In this document: piece by piece, positions 1,615 through 9,039 of the stretch
Numbering within the stretch: the first letter of the stretch is position 1
Layout: every line of letters begins with the position of its first letter
Program-made: the position numbers and the translations under genes
Source: a virus
Direction: 5' to 3' (one strand)
Length of the DNA: 16,642 nucleotides
Virus genome (UHGV): UHGV-1941890
The notes under the pieces: model-generated
Told to the model about the DNA's origin: nothing
The model's database searches: none
The model's input: only the letters and a program-made list of their open reading frames with translations

Positions 1615-2134
1615 TTCACTGTTACCGCCATCAGCCAGCAATTTCATGCGTTGCGCCGAAGCTGTCGGAGCGCGCATTACAGACATTCCGGTAGACCTCA
1701 ACACGCTGTGGTCGCCGGACACCTGCCCGGTGCATCTGCTGCCTTATCTCGCCTGGGCATTTTCCGTTGACCGCTGGGATCGCAACTGGCCGGAAGAGAC
1801 AAAGCGACAGGTGATTCGTGATGCATGGCTGATACACCGACACAAGGGAACCATCAGCGCACTGCGCCGGGCCATTGAGCCGCTGGGATATCTCATTCGT
1901 GTGTCTGAGTGGTGGGAGTTCGACGGCGAACCCGGAACATTCAAGGTTGATGTTGGCGCGCTGGACAGTGGTGTGACCGAGGAAATGTATCTGGAAATGG
2001 AACGGCTGATTGCCGATGCCAAACCCGCAAGTCGCCACCTTATCGGCCTGAACATTATCCAGGACATTCCCGGCTATCTGTATACAGGCGGTGTGGTCTG
2101 TGATGGTGATGTTATTACTGTTTATCCCGGATAA
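1607..2134 (+). CDS. I: Baseplate/tail-fibre attachment protein gpI
   Basis: 176-aa product from the ATG at 1607 (MSNSLLPP...), inside the longer 1574 ORF and overlapping the J stop (ATGAGTAA). Size matches P2 gpI (~176 aa) and the position is between J and H. Confidence 0.75.
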   Translation: MSNSLLPPSASNFMRCAEAVGARITDIPVDLNTLWSPDTCPVHLLPYLAWAFSVDRWDRNWPEETKRQVIRDAWLIHRHKGTISALRRAIEPLGYLIRVSEWWEFDGEPGTFKVDVGALDSGVTEEMYLEMERLIADAKPASRHLIGLNIIQDIPGYLYTGGVVCDGDVITVYPG

Positions 2135-2144
2135 GTGAGAAACA

Positions 2145-4880
2145 ATGAGCACGAAATTTAAAACCGTTATCACTACTGCCGGAGCCGCGAAGCTGGCAGC
2201 CGCCACTGTCCCCGGCGGGAAAAAAGTAACTCTGTCTGCAATGGCCGTGGGTGACGGTAATGGCAAATTGCCGGTGCCGGATGCCGGTCAGACGAAACTG
2301 GTGCATGAGGTCTGGCGTCACGCTCTGAATAAAGTCAGCGTGGATAACAAGAATAAAAACTATATCGTGGCTGAACTGGTTGTACCGCCAGAAGTGGGCG
2401 GCTTCTGGATGCGTGAGCTGGGTCTGTATGACGATGCCGGAACACTGATTGCGGTCGCCAACATGGCAGAAAGCTATAAGCCTGAACTGGCTGAAGGCTC
2501 CGGACGTGCGCAGACCTGCCGCATGGTCATTATTGTCAGTAACGTGGCGTCCGTTGAGCTGAGTATTGATGCCAGCACAGTGATGGCGACGCAGGATTAC
2601 GTCGATAACAAAATCGCAGAACATGAGCAGTCCCGCCGCCATCCTGACGCCACGCTGACAGAAAAAGGTTTTACTCAGTTAAGCAGTGCAACAAACAGCA
2701 CCAGTGAAAGGCTGGCAGCAACGCCAAAGGCAGTAAAAGCAGCCTATGACAATGCTGAAAAACGTATGCAGAAAGACCAGAACGGTGGCGATATTCCAGA
2801 TAAGGACGCTTTTCTGGACAATGTTGGCGTTACCAGCCTGACGTTTATGAAAAACAATGGCGAAATGCCGGTTGATGCCGACCTGAATACATTTGGTCCC
2901 GTTAAGGCTTATCTTGGCGTCTGGTCTAAAGCTACATCCACTAACGCGACGGCTGCTAAAAATTTCCCTGAAGACGGTGCAGTCGGTGTACTGGAGGTAT
3001 TCAATGGCGGTAATTTTTCAGGAATGCAGCGTTATACCACCAGAACAGGCGATGTTTATATGCGCAACCTTTCTGGCACATGGAATGGTTCAGACGGTCC
3101 GTGGAGTTACTGGCGTCAGGTTCAGTCTGCAACACGCCCCCTGAGCACAACCATTGACCTGAACACGCTCGGAGGCGCAGAGCATCTTGGTTTATGGCGA
3201 AACAGTAGTGGCTCAATCGCTTCATTTGACCGCAACTATCCGGAAGAAGGAAGTTATGGTCAGGGACTCCTTGAAGTTCTTGAAGGTGGTGGTTACTCGC
3301 GAACGCAGCGTTACACGACCCGCCGTGGAAATGTTTATGTTCGCTGTCTTTCGGCCTCGTGGGATGCAGAGAACCCACAGTGGGAGCCGTGGTCAAGAGT
3401 GGGCTACCAGTCAGAAAGCCGTTATTACGACGGTGATTTGAATGATGTAACCTCACCAGGTATTTACAGCGTTACAGGTAAAGCGACCAATGGTCCAATA
3501 CTGGACGGAAACGGCGTGACAGTCCTCGGTATTCTGGAAGTGTTGAGGCGCTTTGATGGTGTTAACGTATGGCAGCGTTATACAACTGCCGGAACAGGTA
3601 CAACCCTTAAAGGTCGCACGTTTGAGCGCGTTTTTACCGGCAGCTCATGGAGCGAATGGCGGGAAGTTTACACATCTTATTCACTTTCCCTGAATCTGGG
3701 TATCGGTGGCGCAGTAGCAAAACTCACCAGCCTGGACTGGCAGACCTACGATTTTGTGCCGGGCAGTCTGATAACCGTTCGGCTGGATAATATGACCAAT
3801 ATTCCCGACGGTATGGACTGGGGCGTCATTGATGGCAACCTGATAAATATCGCTGTTGGTCCGAGTGATGATTCCGGTACGGGACGCTCAATGCATGTAT
3901 GGCGCAGCACTGTAAGTAAAGCCAACTACCGCTTTTTTATGGTGCGTATTTCAGGAAATCCGGGAAGCCGCACGATCACGACAAGACGTGTGCCAATCAT
4001 TGACGAAGCACAGACATGGGGCGCGAAACAGACATTCAGTGCTGGCCTTTCTGGTGAACTGTCCGGCAATGCGGCGACAGCAACAAAGCTGAAAACAGCC
4101 TGTAAAATTAATAACGTTTCGTTTGATGGGACATCAGATATTAACCTGACGCCGAAAAATATTGGTGCATTTGCTTCAGGAAAAACAGGAGACACCGTTG
4201 CGAATGATAAAGCCGTTGGATGGAACTGGAGTAGCGGAGCCTATAACGCAACTATTAGTGGGGCATCAACATTAATTCTTCATTTTAATATCGGTGAAGG
4301 AAGTTGCCCCGCCGCCCAGTTCCGCGTTAATTATAAGAACGGCGGTATTTTTTATCGTTCTGCTCGTGACGGTTACGGATTCGAGGCTGACTGGTCTGAG
4401 TTTTATACCACAACGCGAAAACCTACAGCGGGAGATGTCGGTGCACTGTCGTTATCTGGTGGTCAATTGAATGGTGCACTGGGTATCGGAACATCCAGTG
4501 CTCTTGGCGGTAATTCGATTGTTTTGGGTGATAATGACACGGGCTTTAAACAGAATGGTGATGGTAATCTGGATGTTTATGCTAATAACGTCCATGTTAT
4601 GCGCTTTGTTTCCGGCAGCATTCAGAGTAATAAAACCGTAAATATTACGGGGCGCGTTAACCCCTCGGATTACGGCAATTTTGATGGCCGATACGTGAGG
4701 GATGTCCGACTTGGCACACGTGTTGTTCAGACCATGCAAAAAGGCGTGATGTATGAGAAATCAGGCCATGTAATTACCGGGCTTGGCATTGTCGGCGAAG
4801 TTGATGGCGACGATCCGGCAGTATTCAGACCAATACAAAAGTTAATTAACGGAACGTGGTACAACGTGTCACAGGTGTAA
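2145..4880 (+). CDS. H: Tail fibre protein gpH (911 aa), mosaic: P2-like N-terminus, internal tandem fibre repeats, P2-like C-terminus
   Basis: N-terminus MSTKFKTVITTAGAAKLAAATVPGG...FWMRELGLYDDAGTLIAVANMAESYKP and C-terminus ...ALGGNSIVLGDNDTGFKQNGDGNLDVYAN...RPIQKLINGTWYNVSQV match my recollection of P2 gpH. It is the longest + strand ORF and lies directly upstream of the fibre assembly gene. Confidence 0.9.
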   Translation: MSTKFKTVITTAGAAKLAAATVPGGKKVTLSAMAVGDGNGKLPVPDAGQTKLVHEVWRHALNKVSVDNKNKNYIVAELVVPPEVGGFWMRELGLYDDAGTLIAVANMAESYKPELAEGSGRAQTCRMVIIVSNVASVELSIDASTVMATQDYVDNKIAEHEQSRRHPDATLTEKGFTQLSSATNSTSERLAATPKAVKAAYDNAEKRMQKDQNGGDIPDKDAFLDNVGVTSLTFMKNNGEMPVDADLNTFGPVKAYLGVWSKATSTNATAAKNFPEDGAVGVLEVFNGGNFSGMQRYTTRTGDVYMRNLSGTWNGSDGPWSYWRQVQSATRPLSTTIDLNTLGGAEHLGLWRNSSGSIASFDRNYPEEGSYGQGLLEVLEGGGYSRTQRYTTRRGNVYVRCLSASWDAENPQWEPWSRVGYQSESRYYDGDLNDVTSPGIYSVTGKATNGPILDGNGVTVLGILEVLRRFDGVNVWQRYTTAGTGTTLKGRTFERVFTGSSWSEWREVYTSYSLSLNLGIGGAVAKLTSLDWQTYDFVPGSLITVRLDNMTNIPDGMDWGVIDGNLINIAVGPSDDSGTGRSMHVWRSTVSKANYRFFMVRISGNPGSRTITTRRVPIIDEAQTWGAKQTFSAGLSGELSGNAATATKLKTACKINNVSFDGTSDINLTPKNIGAFASGKTGDTVANDKAVGWNWSSGAYNATISGASTLILHFNIGEGSCPAAQFRVNYKNGGIFYRSARDGYGFEADWSEFYTTTRKPTAGDVGALSLSGGQLNGALGIGTSSALGGNSIVLGDNDTGFKQNGDGNLDVYANNVHVMRFVSGSIQSNKTVNITGRVNPSDYGNFDGRYVRDVRLGTRVVQTMQKGVMYEKSGHVITGLGIVGEVDGDDPAVFRPIQKLINGTWYNVSQV
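2880..3668 (+). repeat. Three tandem ~92-aa coding repeats inside gpH (phage tail-fibre repeat type)
   Basis: Units begin at nt 2880, 3156 and 3435 (DLNTFGPV..., DLNTLGGA..., DLNDVTSP...). Each carries G(V/L/I)LEV...QRYTT(R)xG..Y.R......W..W(R)xV. Read directly from the translation. Confidence 0.6.
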
Positions 4881-4883
4881 TTT

Positions 4884-5441
4884 ATGCAGCATTTAAAAAA
4901 CATTGTCGCCGGCAATCCAAAAACCGTTGAGCAATATCAGCTAACAAAAAATTTTAATGTTGCCTGGCTGTGGTCAGAAGACGGAAAAAACTGGTATGAG
5001 GAAGTGAAGAACTTTCAGCCGGACACAATAAAAATTCTTTACGACGAGAACAATATTATTGTGGCCGTAACCAGAGACGCTTCAACACTGGACCCTACAG
5101 GCTACAGCGTTGTCGAAGTTCCCGATATCACCGCCAATCGTCGCGCCGACGATTCAGGAAAGTGGCTGGTTTAGGGCGGGGGCGTGGGGTAAAAGGTTTT
5201 TAAGGACGGAGCTGTGGTTAAACGGATTTATACGGCAGACGAGCAGCAACAGCAGGCCGAATTACAAAAGGCCGCATTGCTTTCCGAAGCTGAATCAGTC
5301 ATCCAGCAGCTGGAACGCGCTGTCAGGCTGAATATGGCGACGGATGAGGAGCGCACACGACTGGAAGCTTGGGAACGCTACAGCGTTCTGGTCAGCCGTG
5401 TGGATACAGCAAAGCCCGAATGGCCACAAAAGCCTGAGTAA
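4884..5441 (+). pseudogene. G: Tail-fibre assembly gene gpG, split by two in-frame stops (TAG 5172-5174, TAA 5190-5192) into a 96-aa N-terminal ORF and a 75-aa C-terminal ORF
   Basis: ORF 4884..5174 ([24 protein letters not shown]...DDSGKWLV*) and ORF 5214..5441 (GTG start; [22 protein letters not shown]...[13 protein letters not shown]) are in the same frame. Together they are the length of an intact ~175-aa Tfa/gpG. The C-terminal half carries the Tfa C-terminal signature (...W..YSVL.SRVDT..PEWP..P). Confidence 0.65.
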
Positions 5442-5654
5442 AAATTAAGCTCCGATATCGGGCCTTCTCTCATTCTGGTTGTTCGGGAAACGTTACTGGC
5501 AGGCCGGAGGTGTCTGTGGATTCGACTTTCTACGCGTAGAGCATCCATTCGGTTAATTTTTGTTTATTCTCGTCGGAAATGATGCCCAGCCGTAGCTGTG
5601 AGCCCCATAGGCGATATACAGACTGAAGAAACAACCAGGCAGACCCAGGAAAAA

Positions 5655-5690
5655 GAAAACCGCTAATCTGAACATTAGCGGTTTTTGCGT
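5655..5690. terminator. Bidirectional intrinsic terminator between the convergent G and U genes
   Basis: Hairpin ACCGCTAAT-ctgaac-ATTAGCGGT (5659-5682) followed by TTTTT on the + strand and preceded by an A-rich run (TTTCTTTTTC on the − strand). Confidence 0.6.
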
Positions 5691-5694
5691 TAAT

Positions 5695-6183
5695 TCAGAA
5701 CAGCCCTTTAACTGAACTGGTTGCGCTGTTAAGAGATGATGTCACCTTATCTTTGAAGCCAGACAGCATATCGCTGAACGATGAGGATTGCAGGCGCTCC
5801 CGCAAATCCTCATCACAGCGTTCAAGGGTCAGTGAAAATTCTATCTTTTTCGCCTTACCGTAGCGATCAAACTCGGAACGGGTCGTATTCGTTTCGGTCA
5901 GAACATACATGCCGTAAATCTGCCCGACGCCATCAATAAGAGGCCAGGGGCGTCCTGTATACGCCTGCGTGGTCAGCAGCGACAGCGACACTTCGCCACC
6001 TGTAATTTCAGGATAAAGCATGCCGGAAAGCACAATGCGATCATCACCTGCACCGATATACTGCCAGCTTGCTGAACGGTTAACGCGTTCATTTTTCACA
6101 TGCCGCCAGTTTTTGTTTTGCTGTAACTGCTGATGCGGCAGTGTGCGCAGCTCAAAAACAAACATGCCGTAGATCATCATCAT
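5695..6183 (-). CDS. U: Tail protein gpU
   Basis: − strand ORF MMMIYGMFVFELRTLP...YPEITGG...WPLIDG..G.IYGMYV...KIEFSL. GAGGAG is 8 nt upstream of the ATG at 6183 (the ATG at 6189 is only 2 nt from it), and the SD overlaps the T stop. Size matches P2 gpU (~160 aa). Confidence 0.75.
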   Translation of the reverse strand: MMMIYGMFVFELRTLPHQQLQQNKNWRHVKNERVNRSASWQYIGAGDDRIVLSGMLYPEITGGEVSLSLLTTQAYTGRPWPLIDGVGQIYGMYVLTETNTTRSEFDRYGKAKKIEFSLTLERCDEDLRERLQSSSFSDMLSGFKDKVTSSLNSATSSVKGLF

Positions 6184-6195
6184 GACCATGACTCC

Positions 6196-9039
6196 TCAAT
6201 CTTTATCGTAAAAACTGCCACGTCCGGCACGGGCGCGCCGTTCCATCTCTGCCCTGACCATTTCACCGACCAGTTTCGCCAGTTCGCGGGGATTCTGCGT
6301 AACAACGTTATGCAGATGGACATGAATTTCACCACCAAATCCGGAGGCAACAGGCTCCCGGTTACGGGAAGTTGCAGGAACTGATGCCACTGGCGATCGT
6401 ATGGCCTCCGCCACCGGGCGGGAGCTGGCCGCAACAACAGGGACCAGCGCCGGAGGCAGCGGAGCCGGGACCACGGGTGTGATATTAATTGCGGGGGCAG
6501 GCTTACTGACATGCGCAATCTTCCGCTCCTGCCATTCCCCACGAACAGCAAGTGCGCGGGGCAGGTTCTTAAAGACAATATCGCCGGGGCCAATGCGTTT
6601 TTTCGTCTCATCAACCAGCTTACCTGTGTTATCAGCAATTTTGCTGAGTCTGCGTAGCGTCCCGGTATTGCTGTCTGTGAGCGGTTTGTTGTCTTTGGGT
6701 TTATCACCTCCGGTGCCATTGCCATTTTCCACAGGCTTCGGCGGATTGATTTTCGCAAGGTCCCCCTGAAGCAAGGCAACCTTGTCCTGAAGAATAGCCG
6801 CACGCTGTGCGTCTTCGATTTTCTTGCGCGCCCTTTCCGCTTCATCCGGAAGGACGCCAAGTTTTTCAAGTATCCACGCCAGCGTATCCAGTAGCATTTT
6901 TGCAGGTGTCAGAACAAGCTGTAACGCACCGCCAAGAACGTTACCGAATATCTCGCCAGCACTGGTACATTTATCCAGCGTTTCCTTGCTGGACTCCATC
7001 GGTGACAGCAGCGATTTAAACCAGTTAAACACCTGGCTGATCCCGCTTCCGATTGCGTCAAAAACAGGACCAAACCGTTCAAAGGTTTCGCGCAACGGGG
7101 TCAGCCTTTCCATAATCCCGCTGAACACCCCGGCAAAAAATGCCCTGATGGGATCCCAGTATTTCCAGATAAGAACGGCAGCTCCGGCAAGCGCAGCCAC
7201 GATAAGACCAACCGGACTGAACAGCGCCCCGATAGCGCCTCCCAGTAAAGAAACGGAACCCGTCACCATTCCCCACAGCGCAGGCAACACCCTGACGACA
7301 TTCATTGACCGGGTAAGAATGTCAAAACCAAGACGCAGGGTGGCCAGCTTCCCGTAAAGCACCCCAATAACCAGCGACAACGAGCCAATCGTTGCAGTCA
7401 TTGCCAGCAACGCACCGCCTGCTATCAGTAGCTGGCGCGTCAGTACCGGATGGGCCTGCGCCAGCGAGGTGATTTTTTCAAGCACCCGCGTGAACCACTG
7501 CGTGACAGAACGCAGCGGACCGTCAACCAGATCACTGATGCGAATACGAAGACCTTCCCATGCGCTGTCGAGATTTTTCAGGTCCCCATCAAGATTATCG
7601 GCCATTACTTTTGCGACGCGATCGGCCTCTCCCCTTGCCCCCTGCAATTCTCTGGTCAGTTTTTGCAGCTCTCCTGAACCAGCCGCCGCAACAAGCGTCT
7701 GCAAACCAACGAACGCCTCTTCTCCGGCGATGTCCTTGAAGAAGGAAACCTGGTCCACCTGTCCGTATTTTTGTGTCGCCTTATAGAGATCAAGCAGCAC
7801 ATCCTCCATCGGGCGCATTTTGCCTCTGGCGTCAGCAACTGACACTCCCAGCTCTTTCAGCGCATCAGCCGCAGCTTTTGGCGGTGATGCAAGGCGGGAC
7901 AGACTTGCGCGCATGGCCGTACCAGCATCGCTTCCGCGAAGACCATTATTGGCAAGCATCCCGGCCATGGCCGCCGCTTCTTCAAGACTGATACCAAGTT
8001 TTGCGGCAACCGGACCGGTATACTTCATGGTTTCGCCCAGCGCGCGTAAATCAGTATTGGTCCGGGTGAATGCTGCTGTCAGCGTATCGCCAACCCGGTC
8101 CATTTGATCGGCTGTCAGGTTGAACTGTGTGAGGATATTGGAGCCTATATCAGCCGTCTCGCCGAGTTCGACGCCACCTGCCAGCGCCATATTAAGAACA
8201 CCGGGCAATGCGGCCTGAATGGCCTGCGGAGTAAAACCAGCCATTGCCAGAAAGCTCTGCCCACTGGCGGCATCACTCGCAGTAAACTGTGTTTCAGAGC
8301 CAAGTTTTAACGCCTGCTCACGCAGCGCCTTAAACTGCGGGCTGTTTTTGTCGATTCGCGTCAGTGCCTGAACGCGGGACATCTCTTTGCCGAACCCGAT
8401 CGCAGGCTGCAAAAAACGCCCGGCAGCATAGCCGCCCGCCGCTGCCGCACCAATTGCCAGCGCACCACCTGTTTTCAGTTTTCCCGCAGTTTCCTGCGCG
8501 CGCGAATACCGCTCACGCGCCCTCGTTACACGCGCAAGCGCCTGCCGTTCGCGTTCAAGCTGGTTGTTGTATTGTTCGGTGCGTCTGATGGCCTGCTGAA
8601 TGGTGTTATCGCTGCCTGTCAGTGAAATGCCGTGGCGTTTCAGCTCTCCGCCAAGCTCCCGCATTTTCTGAATTTCCCGTGTGCGCGATTCATTCAGGCG
8701 TTCAAGCCGGGTGCTTAACTGCTGCATCAGCTTTTGTTGTTTTTCGCTGAGCACTGTACCCGTGCGTTGTAACTGATTAAGGGCGTTAAGCTGGCGTCGT
8801 GCTTTCACGATGCCCGCATCCGCTTTACTGACAGCGTCACGGGCGCGCTCAAATGATCGCGCCTGACGCTCGAGATTTTTGATCGCCCCCTGCGTTCGCT
8901 GGATGGAGTCACCAAACTGCCCCATCAGGCGGCGGGCATTTTCGGCAGGCCGGGTCAGCCTGTCAACGGCGCTGAAAGCGACCCGGATATCAAGAGTCTT
9001 CATTGTCTGCATTCCCGCTGCGAAGTGCCGCCCGCTCAC
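6196..9039 (-). CDS. T: Tail tape measure protein gpT
   Basis: Up to 947 aa, Ala/Gly/Leu-rich with predicted hydrophobic central helices, upstream of U and overlapped at its 5' end by the E' frame. Start is uncertain (GTG 9039, ATG 9012 or ATG 9003). Confidence 0.85.
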   Translation of the reverse strand: MSGRHFAAGMQTMKTLDIRVAFSAVDRLTRPAENARRLMGQFGDSIQRTQGAIKNLERQARSFERARDAVSKADAGIVKARRQLNALNQLQRTGTVLSEKQQKLMQQLSTRLERLNESRTREIQKMRELGGELKRHGISLTGSDNTIQQAIRRTEQYNNQLERERQALARVTRARERYSRAQETAGKLKTGGALAIGAAAAGGYAAGRFLQPAIGFGKEMSRVQALTRIDKNSPQFKALREQALKLGSETQFTASDAASGQSFLAMAGFTPQAIQAALPGVLNMALAGGVELGETADIGSNILTQFNLTADQMDRVGDTLTAAFTRTNTDLRALGETMKYTGPVAAKLGISLEEAAAMAGMLANNGLRGSDAGTAMRASLSRLASPPKAAADALKELGVSVADARGKMRPMEDVLLDLYKATQKYGQVDQVSFFKDIAGEEAFVGLQTLVAAAGSGELQKLTRELQGARGEADRVAKVMADNLDGDLKNLDSAWEGLRIRISDLVDGPLRSVTQWFTRVLEKITSLAQAHPVLTRQLLIAGGALLAMTATIGSLSLVIGVLYGKLATLRLGFDILTRSMNVVRVLPALWGMVTGSVSLLGGAIGALFSPVGLIVAALAGAAVLIWKYWDPIRAFFAGVFSGIMERLTPLRETFERFGPVFDAIGSGISQVFNWFKSLLSPMESSKETLDKCTSAGEIFGNVLGGALQLVLTPAKMLLDTLAWILEKLGVLPDEAERARKKIEDAQRAAILQDKVALLQGDLAKINPPKPVENGNGTGGDKPKDNKPLTDSNTGTLRRLSKIADNTGKLVDETKKRIGPGDIVFKNLPRALAVRGEWQERKIAHVSKPAPAINITPVVPAPLPPALVPVVAASSRPVAEAIRSPVASVPATSRNREPVASGFGGEIHVHLHNVVTQNPRELAKLVGEMVRAEMERRARAGRGSFYDKD

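Follow-up and report, generated by a model that had tools for sequence, protein, structure and literature searches.

Gene H of a P88-like prophage, a probable L-413C-type mosaic tail fibre with three predicted pyocin-type knob domains

Gene H of the virus genome UHGV-1941890, which was analysed as a window of 16,642 nucleotides (the whole stretch of DNA), very probably encodes a mosaic tail fibre of the L-413C type, carried by a P2-family (P88-like) prophage and built from a P2 base, a T2/T6-type three-knob shaft, a Mu-S' domain and a P2/Mu tip. The gene is an open ORF (2145..4880, + strand) whose 911-aa product was 100% identical to RefSeq WP_136696031.1 of E. coli M21816 and exceeded P2 gpH (NC_001895, 669 aa) by 242 aa, in line with the sequence-only reading, which had put the difference at about 240 aa. 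It stands in the order J-I-H-G (Baseplate_J, Tail_P2_I, H and Caudo_TAP in sequence), with a GC content of 0.47-0.51 in the H-G cassette vs 0.57-0.60 in the adjacent baseplate genes.

The segments of H were assigned by profile and pairwise comparison. The baseplate-attachment domain (aa 1-151; 2145..2597, +) matched Pfam Phage_tail_fib PF12571 over the full profile (E 9.3e-58) and was 97-99% conserved across 9 other H alleles, and aa 1-204 were 85% identical to P2 gpH 1-204. A single Phage_fiber_2 (PF03406) motif followed at aa 170-210 (2652..2774, +; Pfam E 2.7e-21), with identities for this region of 65% to lambda orf-401 355-394, 74% to K-12 StfR 460-525 and 60% to Mu S 111-172. From there, aa 226-688, a stretch including all three repeats described below, aligned with T6 gp37 105-562 at 53.5% identity (E 1e-169). 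Behind the repeats, this T-even gp37-like block contained a shaft domain, 'D' (aa 521-629; 3705..4031, +), with 54% identity to T6 gp37 399-517 and tblastn matches in T-even gp37 at 50-60%; hhalign detected no relationship between domain D and the knobs, and an AF2 model that took domain D together with the Mu-S'-type domain (aa 515-775, 13-sequence alignment) was unusable at pLDDT 38. A conserved linker motif (SGNAATATKLKTA.KIN.V.FDGT.DI.L) marked the module junction at aa 630-673 (4032..4163, +; 64% to T6 gp37 63-106). The next segment, a Mu S'-type globular domain (aa 675-769; 4167..4451, +; weak Pfam gp37_C), was 82% identical to Mu S' 164-258 and 82-85% to Mu S' and Mu-like phages overall, matched the solved structure 8JU3 at residues 321-418 (i-Evalue 2.4e-48 for that stretch), and resembled P88's alternative fibre segment Sv' (81% identity in DNA) and StfR (53%). 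The distal, receptor-binding tip, which is of the P2 gpH / Mu S type (aa 770-911 plus the stop codon; 4452..4880, +), had P2, Mu or P1-like relatives, being 49.5% identical to P2 gpH 472-669 and 52% to Mu S 427-502, which has been solved with its assembly protein (5YVQ), and the S16 gp37 structure 6F45 matched H aa 785-857.

The view that the fibre is a recombinant was thereby upheld, as the P2 N-terminus, the T6 gp37 block, the Mu S' domain and the P2/Mu tip have their best relatives in discordant lineages, tblastn pointing to the same ones, and uniform identity to one homologue family along the protein was not observed. The accompanying idea that the extra length is an inserted block did not stand: P2 gpH aa 205-471 (267 aa) are unrelated to, and replaced in H by, aa 205-769 (565 aa), and the homologous C-terminal part comprises 142 aa in H vs 198 aa in P2, so that the alignment points to a replacement of the P2 middle region and not to a simple insertion.

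The three tandem repeats proposed earlier at nt 2880-3668 were recovered with significant E values at nt 2874-3698, as knob 1 (aa 244-335; 2874..3149, +), knob 2 (aa 336-428; 3150..3428, +; HMM domain iE 1.5e-46) and knob 3 (aa 429-518; 3429..3698, +; HMM domain iE 2e-32). DLN, G(V/L/I)LEV, QRYTT and W..W were present in all three ~92-aa units, and the pairwise comparisons (R1 vs R2, 43% identity, E 5e-24; R1 vs R3, 34%, E 7e-5; R2 vs R3, 32% over 53 aa, E 0.012) indicate that their similarity exceeds chance. A fourth copy was not detectable in the remainder of the H protein. Homologue searches started from the block and from the unit profile brought back short E. coli fragments for the most part and supplied the alignment and the NCBI names, the label for homologues of the repeats being 'pyocin knob domain-containing protein'; at E<=1e-3 the knob family ran to 1808 representative proteins, each with 1-8 copies. 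Pfam and NCBIfam models gave no match to aa 243-520, and in NCBIfam neither the fibre nor the repeats have a model. PF03406 was found once, upstream of the units, and the 92-aa units themselves went unmatched, which speaks against placing them in the 'phage tail fibre repeat' family.

A profile built from 15 units, searched against the PDB, ranked 6CL5 (E 3.8e-4), 6CL6 (1.6e-3) and 6CT8 (1.9e-3) as its top three, with the conserved motifs aligned and the scores marginal; on the R1/R2 pyocin fibres the aligned positions were consistent with Knob2 (residues 445-528), and Pa193 gp47 was reached at E 0.027. A monomer AlphaFold model of one unit (AF2, 16-sequence alignment, pLDDT 83) predicted an antiparallel sheet of 5-6 beta-strands and covering loops, as in the pyocin knob, and Foldseek placed 6CL5 on top for this model (prob 1.00, TM 0.60). 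Profile, model and names agree in identifying the 92-aa units as predicted pyocin-type knob domains, whose sequences resemble those of the solved pyocin knobs at a marginal level (E about 1e-3).

All three units have the same length and follow one another strictly head-to-tail, as would be expected had they arisen by a recent local tandem triplication in the prophage lineage. Tandem Repeats Finder, however, found no repeat at the DNA level, which marks the copies as old and diverged, and each knob was nearer to its positional counterpart in T6 gp37 (50-65%; 64% for knob 2 and 50% for knob 3) than to its neighbours in H (32-43%). The same three units also occur in the order of H in T6 gp37, L-413C and P24A7b. 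Since T6 gp37 carries three knobs in H's order, the triplication is old, and this positional orthology refutes a recent local origin, to which we attach practically no probability.

As to where the shaft came from, the sequence-only reading had named a lambdoid side-tail fibre or a cryptic-prophage Stf protein as the donor. Some features agree with such a source: lambda Stf and K-12 StfR share the Phage_fiber_2 motif (aa 168-233), StfR also matches the linker and the Mu-S'-type domain (aa 635-760, 53%), and in the peduovirus allele P24A7b the knob array is joined to a distal end whose assembly protein is of the TfaP/TfaQ type. The knobs themselves point elsewhere. The knob HMM, which detected T6 gp37 at E 5e-80, gave nothing significant when lambda stf, Rac StfR, e14 StfP/StfE and Qin StfQ were searched in six-frame translation (best E 0.04), and lambda Stf shared with H only a 40-aa Phage_fiber_2 motif (aa 168-207). 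The 278-aa repeat block matched full-length at 58-63% in peduoviruses and about 200 T4-like gp37 genes, and tblastn with the knob block and the adjoining ~115 aa of the domain behind it retrieved gp37 genes of Tequatrovirus, about 200 in number, at 50-63%. Of the 230 phage records matching the repeat block, an even sample of 60 included no lambdoid coliphage, and the colinear match to T6 gp37 extends over 463 aa. Judged on the reference lambdoid fibres and this sample, a lambdoid donor is therefore highly improbable, and the T2/T6-type shaft of the L-413C-type mosaic remains the reading we adopt. The relation to the T-even phages is itself confined to a module, given that the shaft block is common to both and that the N-terminus (1-62) and distal part (563-994) of T6 gp37 have no counterpart in H; a shared module of this kind does not amount to membership of gp37. 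Identity to T-even gp37 never rose above about 63%, so that no recent transfer took place from a sampled phage.

The linker motif falls inside the stretch of H that aligns with K-12 StfR 775-900, it is overlapped by matches to P1/P7 S, the P7 match overlapping an annotated C-segment crossover site, and in P0001 it lies upstream of the knobs. We infer that module swaps occur by recombination at such conserved linker motifs.

In the structure that we propose, the N-terminal 200 aa would dock the fibre trimer on the baseplate in a P2-like manner, and the middle of P2 gpH would have been swapped for a shaft module common to T2/T6-type gp37 that begins with three 'pyocin knob' domains. Each knob would be a small 5-stranded beta-sheet domain that packs in the trimer round the fibre axis to give one globular bead per unit, by analogy with the R1/R2 pyocins. 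After the knobs would come one more T-even-type shaft domain, the linker motif, the Mu S'-type domain and the P2/Mu-type tip, the latter folded with help from the downstream assembly protein G and binding the LPS core. Judged by the structure of the R1/R2 pyocin fibre, the three knobs may lengthen the shaft, by roughly 10 nm, and stiffen it, and an influence of the knobs on fibre length and host range, suggested earlier, is plausible.

The part played by the knobs in host recognition allows more than one reading. LPS core is the established receptor for L-413C and P2, and both phages need one and the same terminal GlcNAc in the LPS core of Y. pestis (PMC3182234); that knobless P2 and three-knob L-413C share this critical residue argues that the tip, and not the knobs, sets the primary receptor. 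The knobs might accordingly be structural spacers or folding nuclei only, with the tip alone setting host range and the variability a neutral by-product of recombination, a possible reading that we hold to be somewhat doubtful. It is further favoured by variation in the tip itself, which falls to 73% identity between alleles. Against it, knobs 1 and 3 were the most variable parts of near-identical alleles, hypervariable at 46-49% identity (minimum for knob 3, 46%) between alleles whose N-terminus, Mu-S' domain and tip were 95-99% identical, and the knob alleles assorted independently. In R-type pyocins, moreover, Knob2 is the most diverse surface and a proposed LPS binder, and K1F's knob-like beta-prism binds sialic acid (PMC6116203). 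In the proposed L-413C-type fibre, knobs 1 and 3 probably touch surface saccharides through their variable loops, a secondary contact that would modulate host range, and yet the knob variability could be neutral recombination with diverged donors instead of host-range selection.

A more far-reaching suggestion, tentative and in our estimate rather unlikely, is that the knobs are independently exchangeable specificity cassettes, with knobs 1 and 3 falling into discrete, reassorting allele classes that are sometimes nearer to T-even gp37 than to peduovirus knobs. If true, sites that bind saccharides and tune host range would lie in the shaft as well as the tip, and a single knob pool would serve both the temperate P2-like and the virulent T-even phages. 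The per-knob allele classes suggest that knobs could be exchanged one by one, and the value of this would lie in fibre engineering and host-range prediction alone.

We also considered the integrity of the locus. Gene G (4884..5441, +; Pfam Caudo_TAP, weak), encoding the tail-fibre assembly protein and partner of the H tip, carried in the window a 30-bp in-frame insertion (5169-5198) with two stop codons; without it, G would be 175 aa and 87-90% identical to P88 tfa, P2 G and Mu U. The insertion was absent from M21816 and all other complete E. coli genomes, and an exact-match scan of GTDB representative genomes for it returned nothing. Gene J in the window contained an N-run at 1383-1396. Given the stop codons in G and the N-run in J, this copy may not yield an assembled fibre, provided that the sequence is accurate. 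Beyond G lies what is left of a second tail-fibre assembly gene in inverted orientation, tfa' (5530..5613, -), annotated as a partial tfa in M21816. At this position P88 carries tfa', Sv' and a DNA invertase, which are missing here; the remnant is a leftover of a P88/Mu-type invertible fibre segment, and H has a single, fixed configuration. That the inverted FI-U tail operon might be a fibre-linked rearrangement was rejected, since P88-like phages normally have this layout.

P2, Mu, P1 and the T-even phages have reportedly long been known to exchange segments of their tail fibres as modules (Haggård-Ljungquist et al. 1992; Sandmeier 1994), and H adds one more case. For annotation, the 92-aa repeats are best called tandem knob domains of pyocin type, within a mosaic gpH of the L-413C type, and not a lambdoid acquisition. 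The fibre is of an ordinary and already known type, and the earlier implication that the prophage is unusual is not sustained: the allele is common, 28 phage records and 170 complete E. coli genomes share the architecture, and eight further colinear H alleles measured 911-919 aa. For L-413C gpH this architecture had already been described in 2008, as a four-region hybrid with P2-like N-terminal 207 aa and C-terminal 137 aa and a mosaic middle (PMC7460101).

Among the closest known systems, gpH of Yersinia phage L-413C (NP_839867, 913 aa) was colinear with H at 79.8% identity in one blastp HSP (1-911 / 1-913, 2 gaps) and had the same eight segments, including three knobs, a Mu-S'-type domain and a P2-type tip, with a gpG-type assembly gene next to it. 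The two differ in knob alleles (49% identity in knob 1 and 46% in knob 3) and in backbone, L-413C being a Peduovirus and the prophage carrying H being P88-like (Xuanwuvirus). T2/T6-type gp37, the distal long-tail-fibre subunit of Tequatrovirus, resembles H in its three knobs in equal order and the same shaft domain after them, and differs in its N-terminus (gp36-binding), its distal end (gp38 adhesin site) and the position of the linker motif, before the knobs in T6 gp37 and after domain D in H; T4 gp37 does not contain the knob block. The fibre knobs of R1/R2 pyocins (PDB 6CL5, 6CL6, 6CU2; Buth et al. 2018) number two, in contrast to three in H, at about 22-29% identity, and the pyocin shaft and lectin-like foot are absent from H. 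Canonical P2 gpH (669 aa) shares with H the N-terminal 204 aa (85%) and the distal tip of about 140-200 aa (49.5%), as well as the gene order I-H-G and a gpG that is 87% identical, whereas its middle (aa 205-471) is unrelated and without knob domains. Mu resembles the H locus in S' (82% over aa 675-769), in the S tip (52%) and in U (87% to G), and the Mu/P88 invertible modules differ from it in their invertase and complete alternative Sv'/U' segment.

The tail-fibre gene H (2145-4880, + strand) is an intact ORF encoding a P2 gpH-type protein of 911 aa, compared with 669 aa for P2 gpH. Three units lie head-to-tail at aa 244-335, 336-428 and 429-518 (nt 2874-3698, + strand) and share the motifs described in a sequence-only reading, whose account of a 911-aa fibre with three tandem repeats was confirmed by the intact ORF and by pairwise blastp between units (43% identity, E = 5e-24 for units 1 and 2; 34%, E = 7e-5 for units 1 and 3; 32% over 53 aa, E = 0.012 for units 2 and 3). 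No tandem repeat was detectable across the units at the DNA level. The same reading attributed the extra length to an added repeat block; instead, a 565-aa middle region replaces the 267-aa middle of P2 gpH, together with a shorter tip, which rules out a simple insertion.

Pfam assigned H aa 1-151 to Phage_tail_fib (E = 9e-58), aa 170-210 to a single Phage_fiber_2 motif and, weakly, aa 679-754 to gp37_C, all on the + strand, with no match on the repeats, and an NCBIfam search of H returned no match. By local blastp against reference fibres, aa 1-204 matched P2 gpH 1-204 (85% identity), aa 226-688 matched T6 gp37 105-562 (53.5%, E = 1e-169), aa 630-673 matched T6 gp37 63-106 (64%), aa 635-760 matched K-12 StfR 775-900 (53%), aa 675-769 matched Mu S' 164-258 (82%), and the tip, aa 770-911, matched P2 gpH 472-669 (49.5%). 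The only match of lambda Stf (orf-401) was at aa 168-207 (65%), and T4 gp37 gave no match at all. A PDB sequence search placed Mu S/S' (8JU3, 5YVQ) and S16 gp37 (6F45) on segments with corresponding blastp matches. In tblastn of H segments against 50,697 phage records, the knob block was matched by peduoviruses (77-99%), then by gp37 genes of Tequatrovirus, about 200 in number (58-63% across all 278 aa); aa 521-671 by T-even gp37, then P1/P7 S; aa 672-769 by Mu-like phages (82-85%), Xuanwuvirus (78%) and FelixO1-like phages (40-52%); and the tip by peduoviruses, Xuanwuvirus, P1-like RCS47, Mu S and some T-even gp37. Since the relatives differ by segment in both searches, domain-level discordance, the check that the sequence-only reading had itself proposed, is clearly present, and the earlier inference of a mosaic fibre was right in principle.

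Within H, aa 630-673 (window 4032-4163) carry a conserved motif, SGNAATATKLKTA.KIN.V.FDGT.DI.L, which follows domain D (aa 521-629) in H but precedes the knobs of both T6 gp37 and the E. coli fragment P0001. The motif overlaps the matches to P1/P7 S, and the one to P7 also overlaps the annotated boundary of the C segment. It is likely a recombination linker between fibre modules.

The repeats had been assigned to a type found in lambdoid side-tail fibres, an assignment that did not hold: profile matches in PDB and a Foldseek search identified the units, on which Pfam was silent, as pyocin-type knobs. A 15-unit profile searched against PDB sequences ranked R1/R2 pyocin fibres as its top three (6CL5, E = 3.8e-4; 6CL6, 1.6e-3; 6CT8, 1.9e-3), followed by the Pa193 gp47 tail fibre; the aligned positions in the pyocin chains are consistent with Knob2 (residues 445-528, Buth et al.), and the motifs NYP, G.L.V, Q.Y.T, G..Y.R and W..W align between profile and pyocin fibres. 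An AlphaFold model of unit 1 from a 16-unit alignment (pLDDT 83, pTM 0.74) had five beta-strands and returned 6CL5 as the top Foldseek match (prob 1.00, TM 0.60). Homologous E. coli proteins are named 'pyocin knob domain-containing protein' by NCBI. An exhaustive unit-HMM search of 1.84 billion representative proteins yielded 1808 proteins at E <= 1e-3, of which 339 also passed E <= 1e-10; each contains 1-8 units, so tandem arrays of knobs are common components of fibres.

The proposed lambdoid donor of the repeat shaft proved to be misassigned. Run on six-frame translations of each reference region, the unit HMM had no significant match in the lambda stf region or in K-12 Rac (StfR), e14 (StfP/StfE) and Qin (StfQ), nor in P88, the Mu fibre region, T4 genes 34-38 and the P2 H region, but matched T6 gp37 (E = 5e-80) and H of Peduovirus P24A7b (E = 6e-90). 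With lambdoid fibres, H has in common the Phage_fiber_2 motif of 40 aa; with StfR it also shares the linker and the Mu-S'-type domain. Its knobs are absent from the reference lambdoid fibres. In P24A7b (1766-4968), an 874-aa H allele joins the three-knob array to an unrelated distal end and is followed by a TfaP/TfaQ-type assembly gene, so the array does combine with lambdoid-type tips, although the reference lambdoid Stf proteins lack knobs.

The three knobs of T6 gp37 (aa 123-214, 215-306 and 308-399) are 50-65% identical to their positional counterparts in the window, compared with 32-43% between neighbouring window knobs; the triplication is therefore older than the exchange, in which the array was transferred whole. 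Conservation among ten peduovirus H alleles is 94-99% in the N-terminus, in the Mu-S'-type domain and, for the most part, in domain D; mean identities (minima) are 78% (48%), 84% (67%) and 77% (46%) for knobs 1, 2 and 3. Knob alleles assort independently among these fibres: identities to the window knobs 1, 2 and 3 are 91%, 94% and 73% in P24B2, 78%, 82% and 98% in P24C9, and 49%, 71% and 46% in the Yersinia phage L-413C, and the window allele lies nearer to T6 gp37 than to L-413C in knobs 1 and 3. Across the peduovirus H alleles compared with window 2874-3698, knobs 1 and 3 fall into discrete allele classes in fibres otherwise 95-99% identical.

The window is an E. coli P2-family prophage, 99.7% identical to the one adjoining ihfA/pheT in strain M21816, with the gene order V-W-J-I-H-G. 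Downstream of G, the minus-strand genes U, T, E, FII and FI are followed by D, a 1039-aa ORF, ogr and hok. Judged by sequence, its backbone is P88-like (Xuanwuvirus) and not P2 proper: P88 matches 9-2749 (87%) and 5646-12543 (93%). In contrast to this backbone, the H-G cassette (1706-5434) matches Peduovirus vB_EcoM-569R9 at 91% identity, and its GC is 0.47-0.51 versus 0.57-0.60 in the baseplate genes. The tail operon FI-FII-E-E'-T-U (5695-11280, - strand) runs in the opposite direction to its P2 counterpart, with D (11438-12547, + strand) divergent from FI. A local rearrangement was rejected as the source because P88-like phages (Xuanwuvirus) normally have this arrangement, which is present in 13 phage records and in 1356 complete E. 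coli genomes. Between D and ogr lies a 3.5-kb AT-rich island (12544-16010; GC 0.33 versus about 0.55 in the flanks) absent from P88. Its sole protein (1039 aa, ORF 12796-15915, + strand) has hydrophobic N-terminal segments and no match in Pfam, NCBIfam or PADLOC, and may be the product of an uncharacterised moron or defence gene sited in a hotspot of the P2 family.

Phage P88 has an invertible fibre segment of the Mu-like kind (P88 25416-27564), comprising tfa', Sv' and a DNA invertase. At the corresponding position, window 5442-5694 retains only a tfa' remnant, the C-terminal part of an inverted assembly gene (about 5530-5613, - strand); the fibre locus is therefore a fixed, non-invertible derivative. 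The assembly gene G (4884-5441, + strand) contains a 30-bp in-frame insertion with two stop codons (5169-5198, + strand; GTTTAGGGCGGGGGCGTGGGGTAAAAGGTT), absent from the M21816 prophage, from each of the 5,426 complete E. coli genomes and from the GTDB representative genomes; it is an artefact or else a unique insertion that inactivates the gene. In the baseplate gene J, a 10-N run (1383-1396), with five bases missing relative to M21816, splits the gene into ORFs 723-1415 and 1363-1614 and resembles masked sequence or a gap in the assembly rather than a genuine frameshift. Both lesions may be sequence artefacts; if real, they would make fibre assembly from this prophage impossible.

In the proposed mechanism, the N-terminal domain of H would anchor the trimer to the baseplate, knobs 1-3 would form consecutive trimeric beads as in pyocin fibre structures, these knobs and domain D would lengthen the shaft, and the Mu-S'-type domain and P2/Mu-type tip would constitute the distal receptor-binding end, with G helping to fold the tip. 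G is 87% identical to Mu U, and 5YVQ is the Mu S tip solved together with its assembly protein, whose role in tip folding was reportedly described by North et al. in 2019. The variability of knobs 1 and 3, together with precedents from pyocins and K1F (PMC6116203), makes secondary saccharide binding by these two knobs plausible. On Y. pestis, both L-413C and P2 vir1 need the LPS core, in which terminal GlcNAc is the residue that is critical (PMC3182234), and this shared receptor argues that primary specificity is set by the tip.

The architecture of H is already in the literature and databases. The allele was found at full length in 28 phage records and in 170 complete E. coli genomes, and an annotated RefSeq protein matches it at 100% identity. 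According to the summary in PMC7460101, Garcia et al. 2008 described L-413C gpH as a four-region hybrid, P2-like in its N-terminal 207 aa and C-terminal 137 aa, with a middle that in turn combines parts of fibres from other enterobacterial phages, and also showed a gpH fusion binding Y. pestis. This 913-aa protein is colinear with the window H at 79.8% identity.
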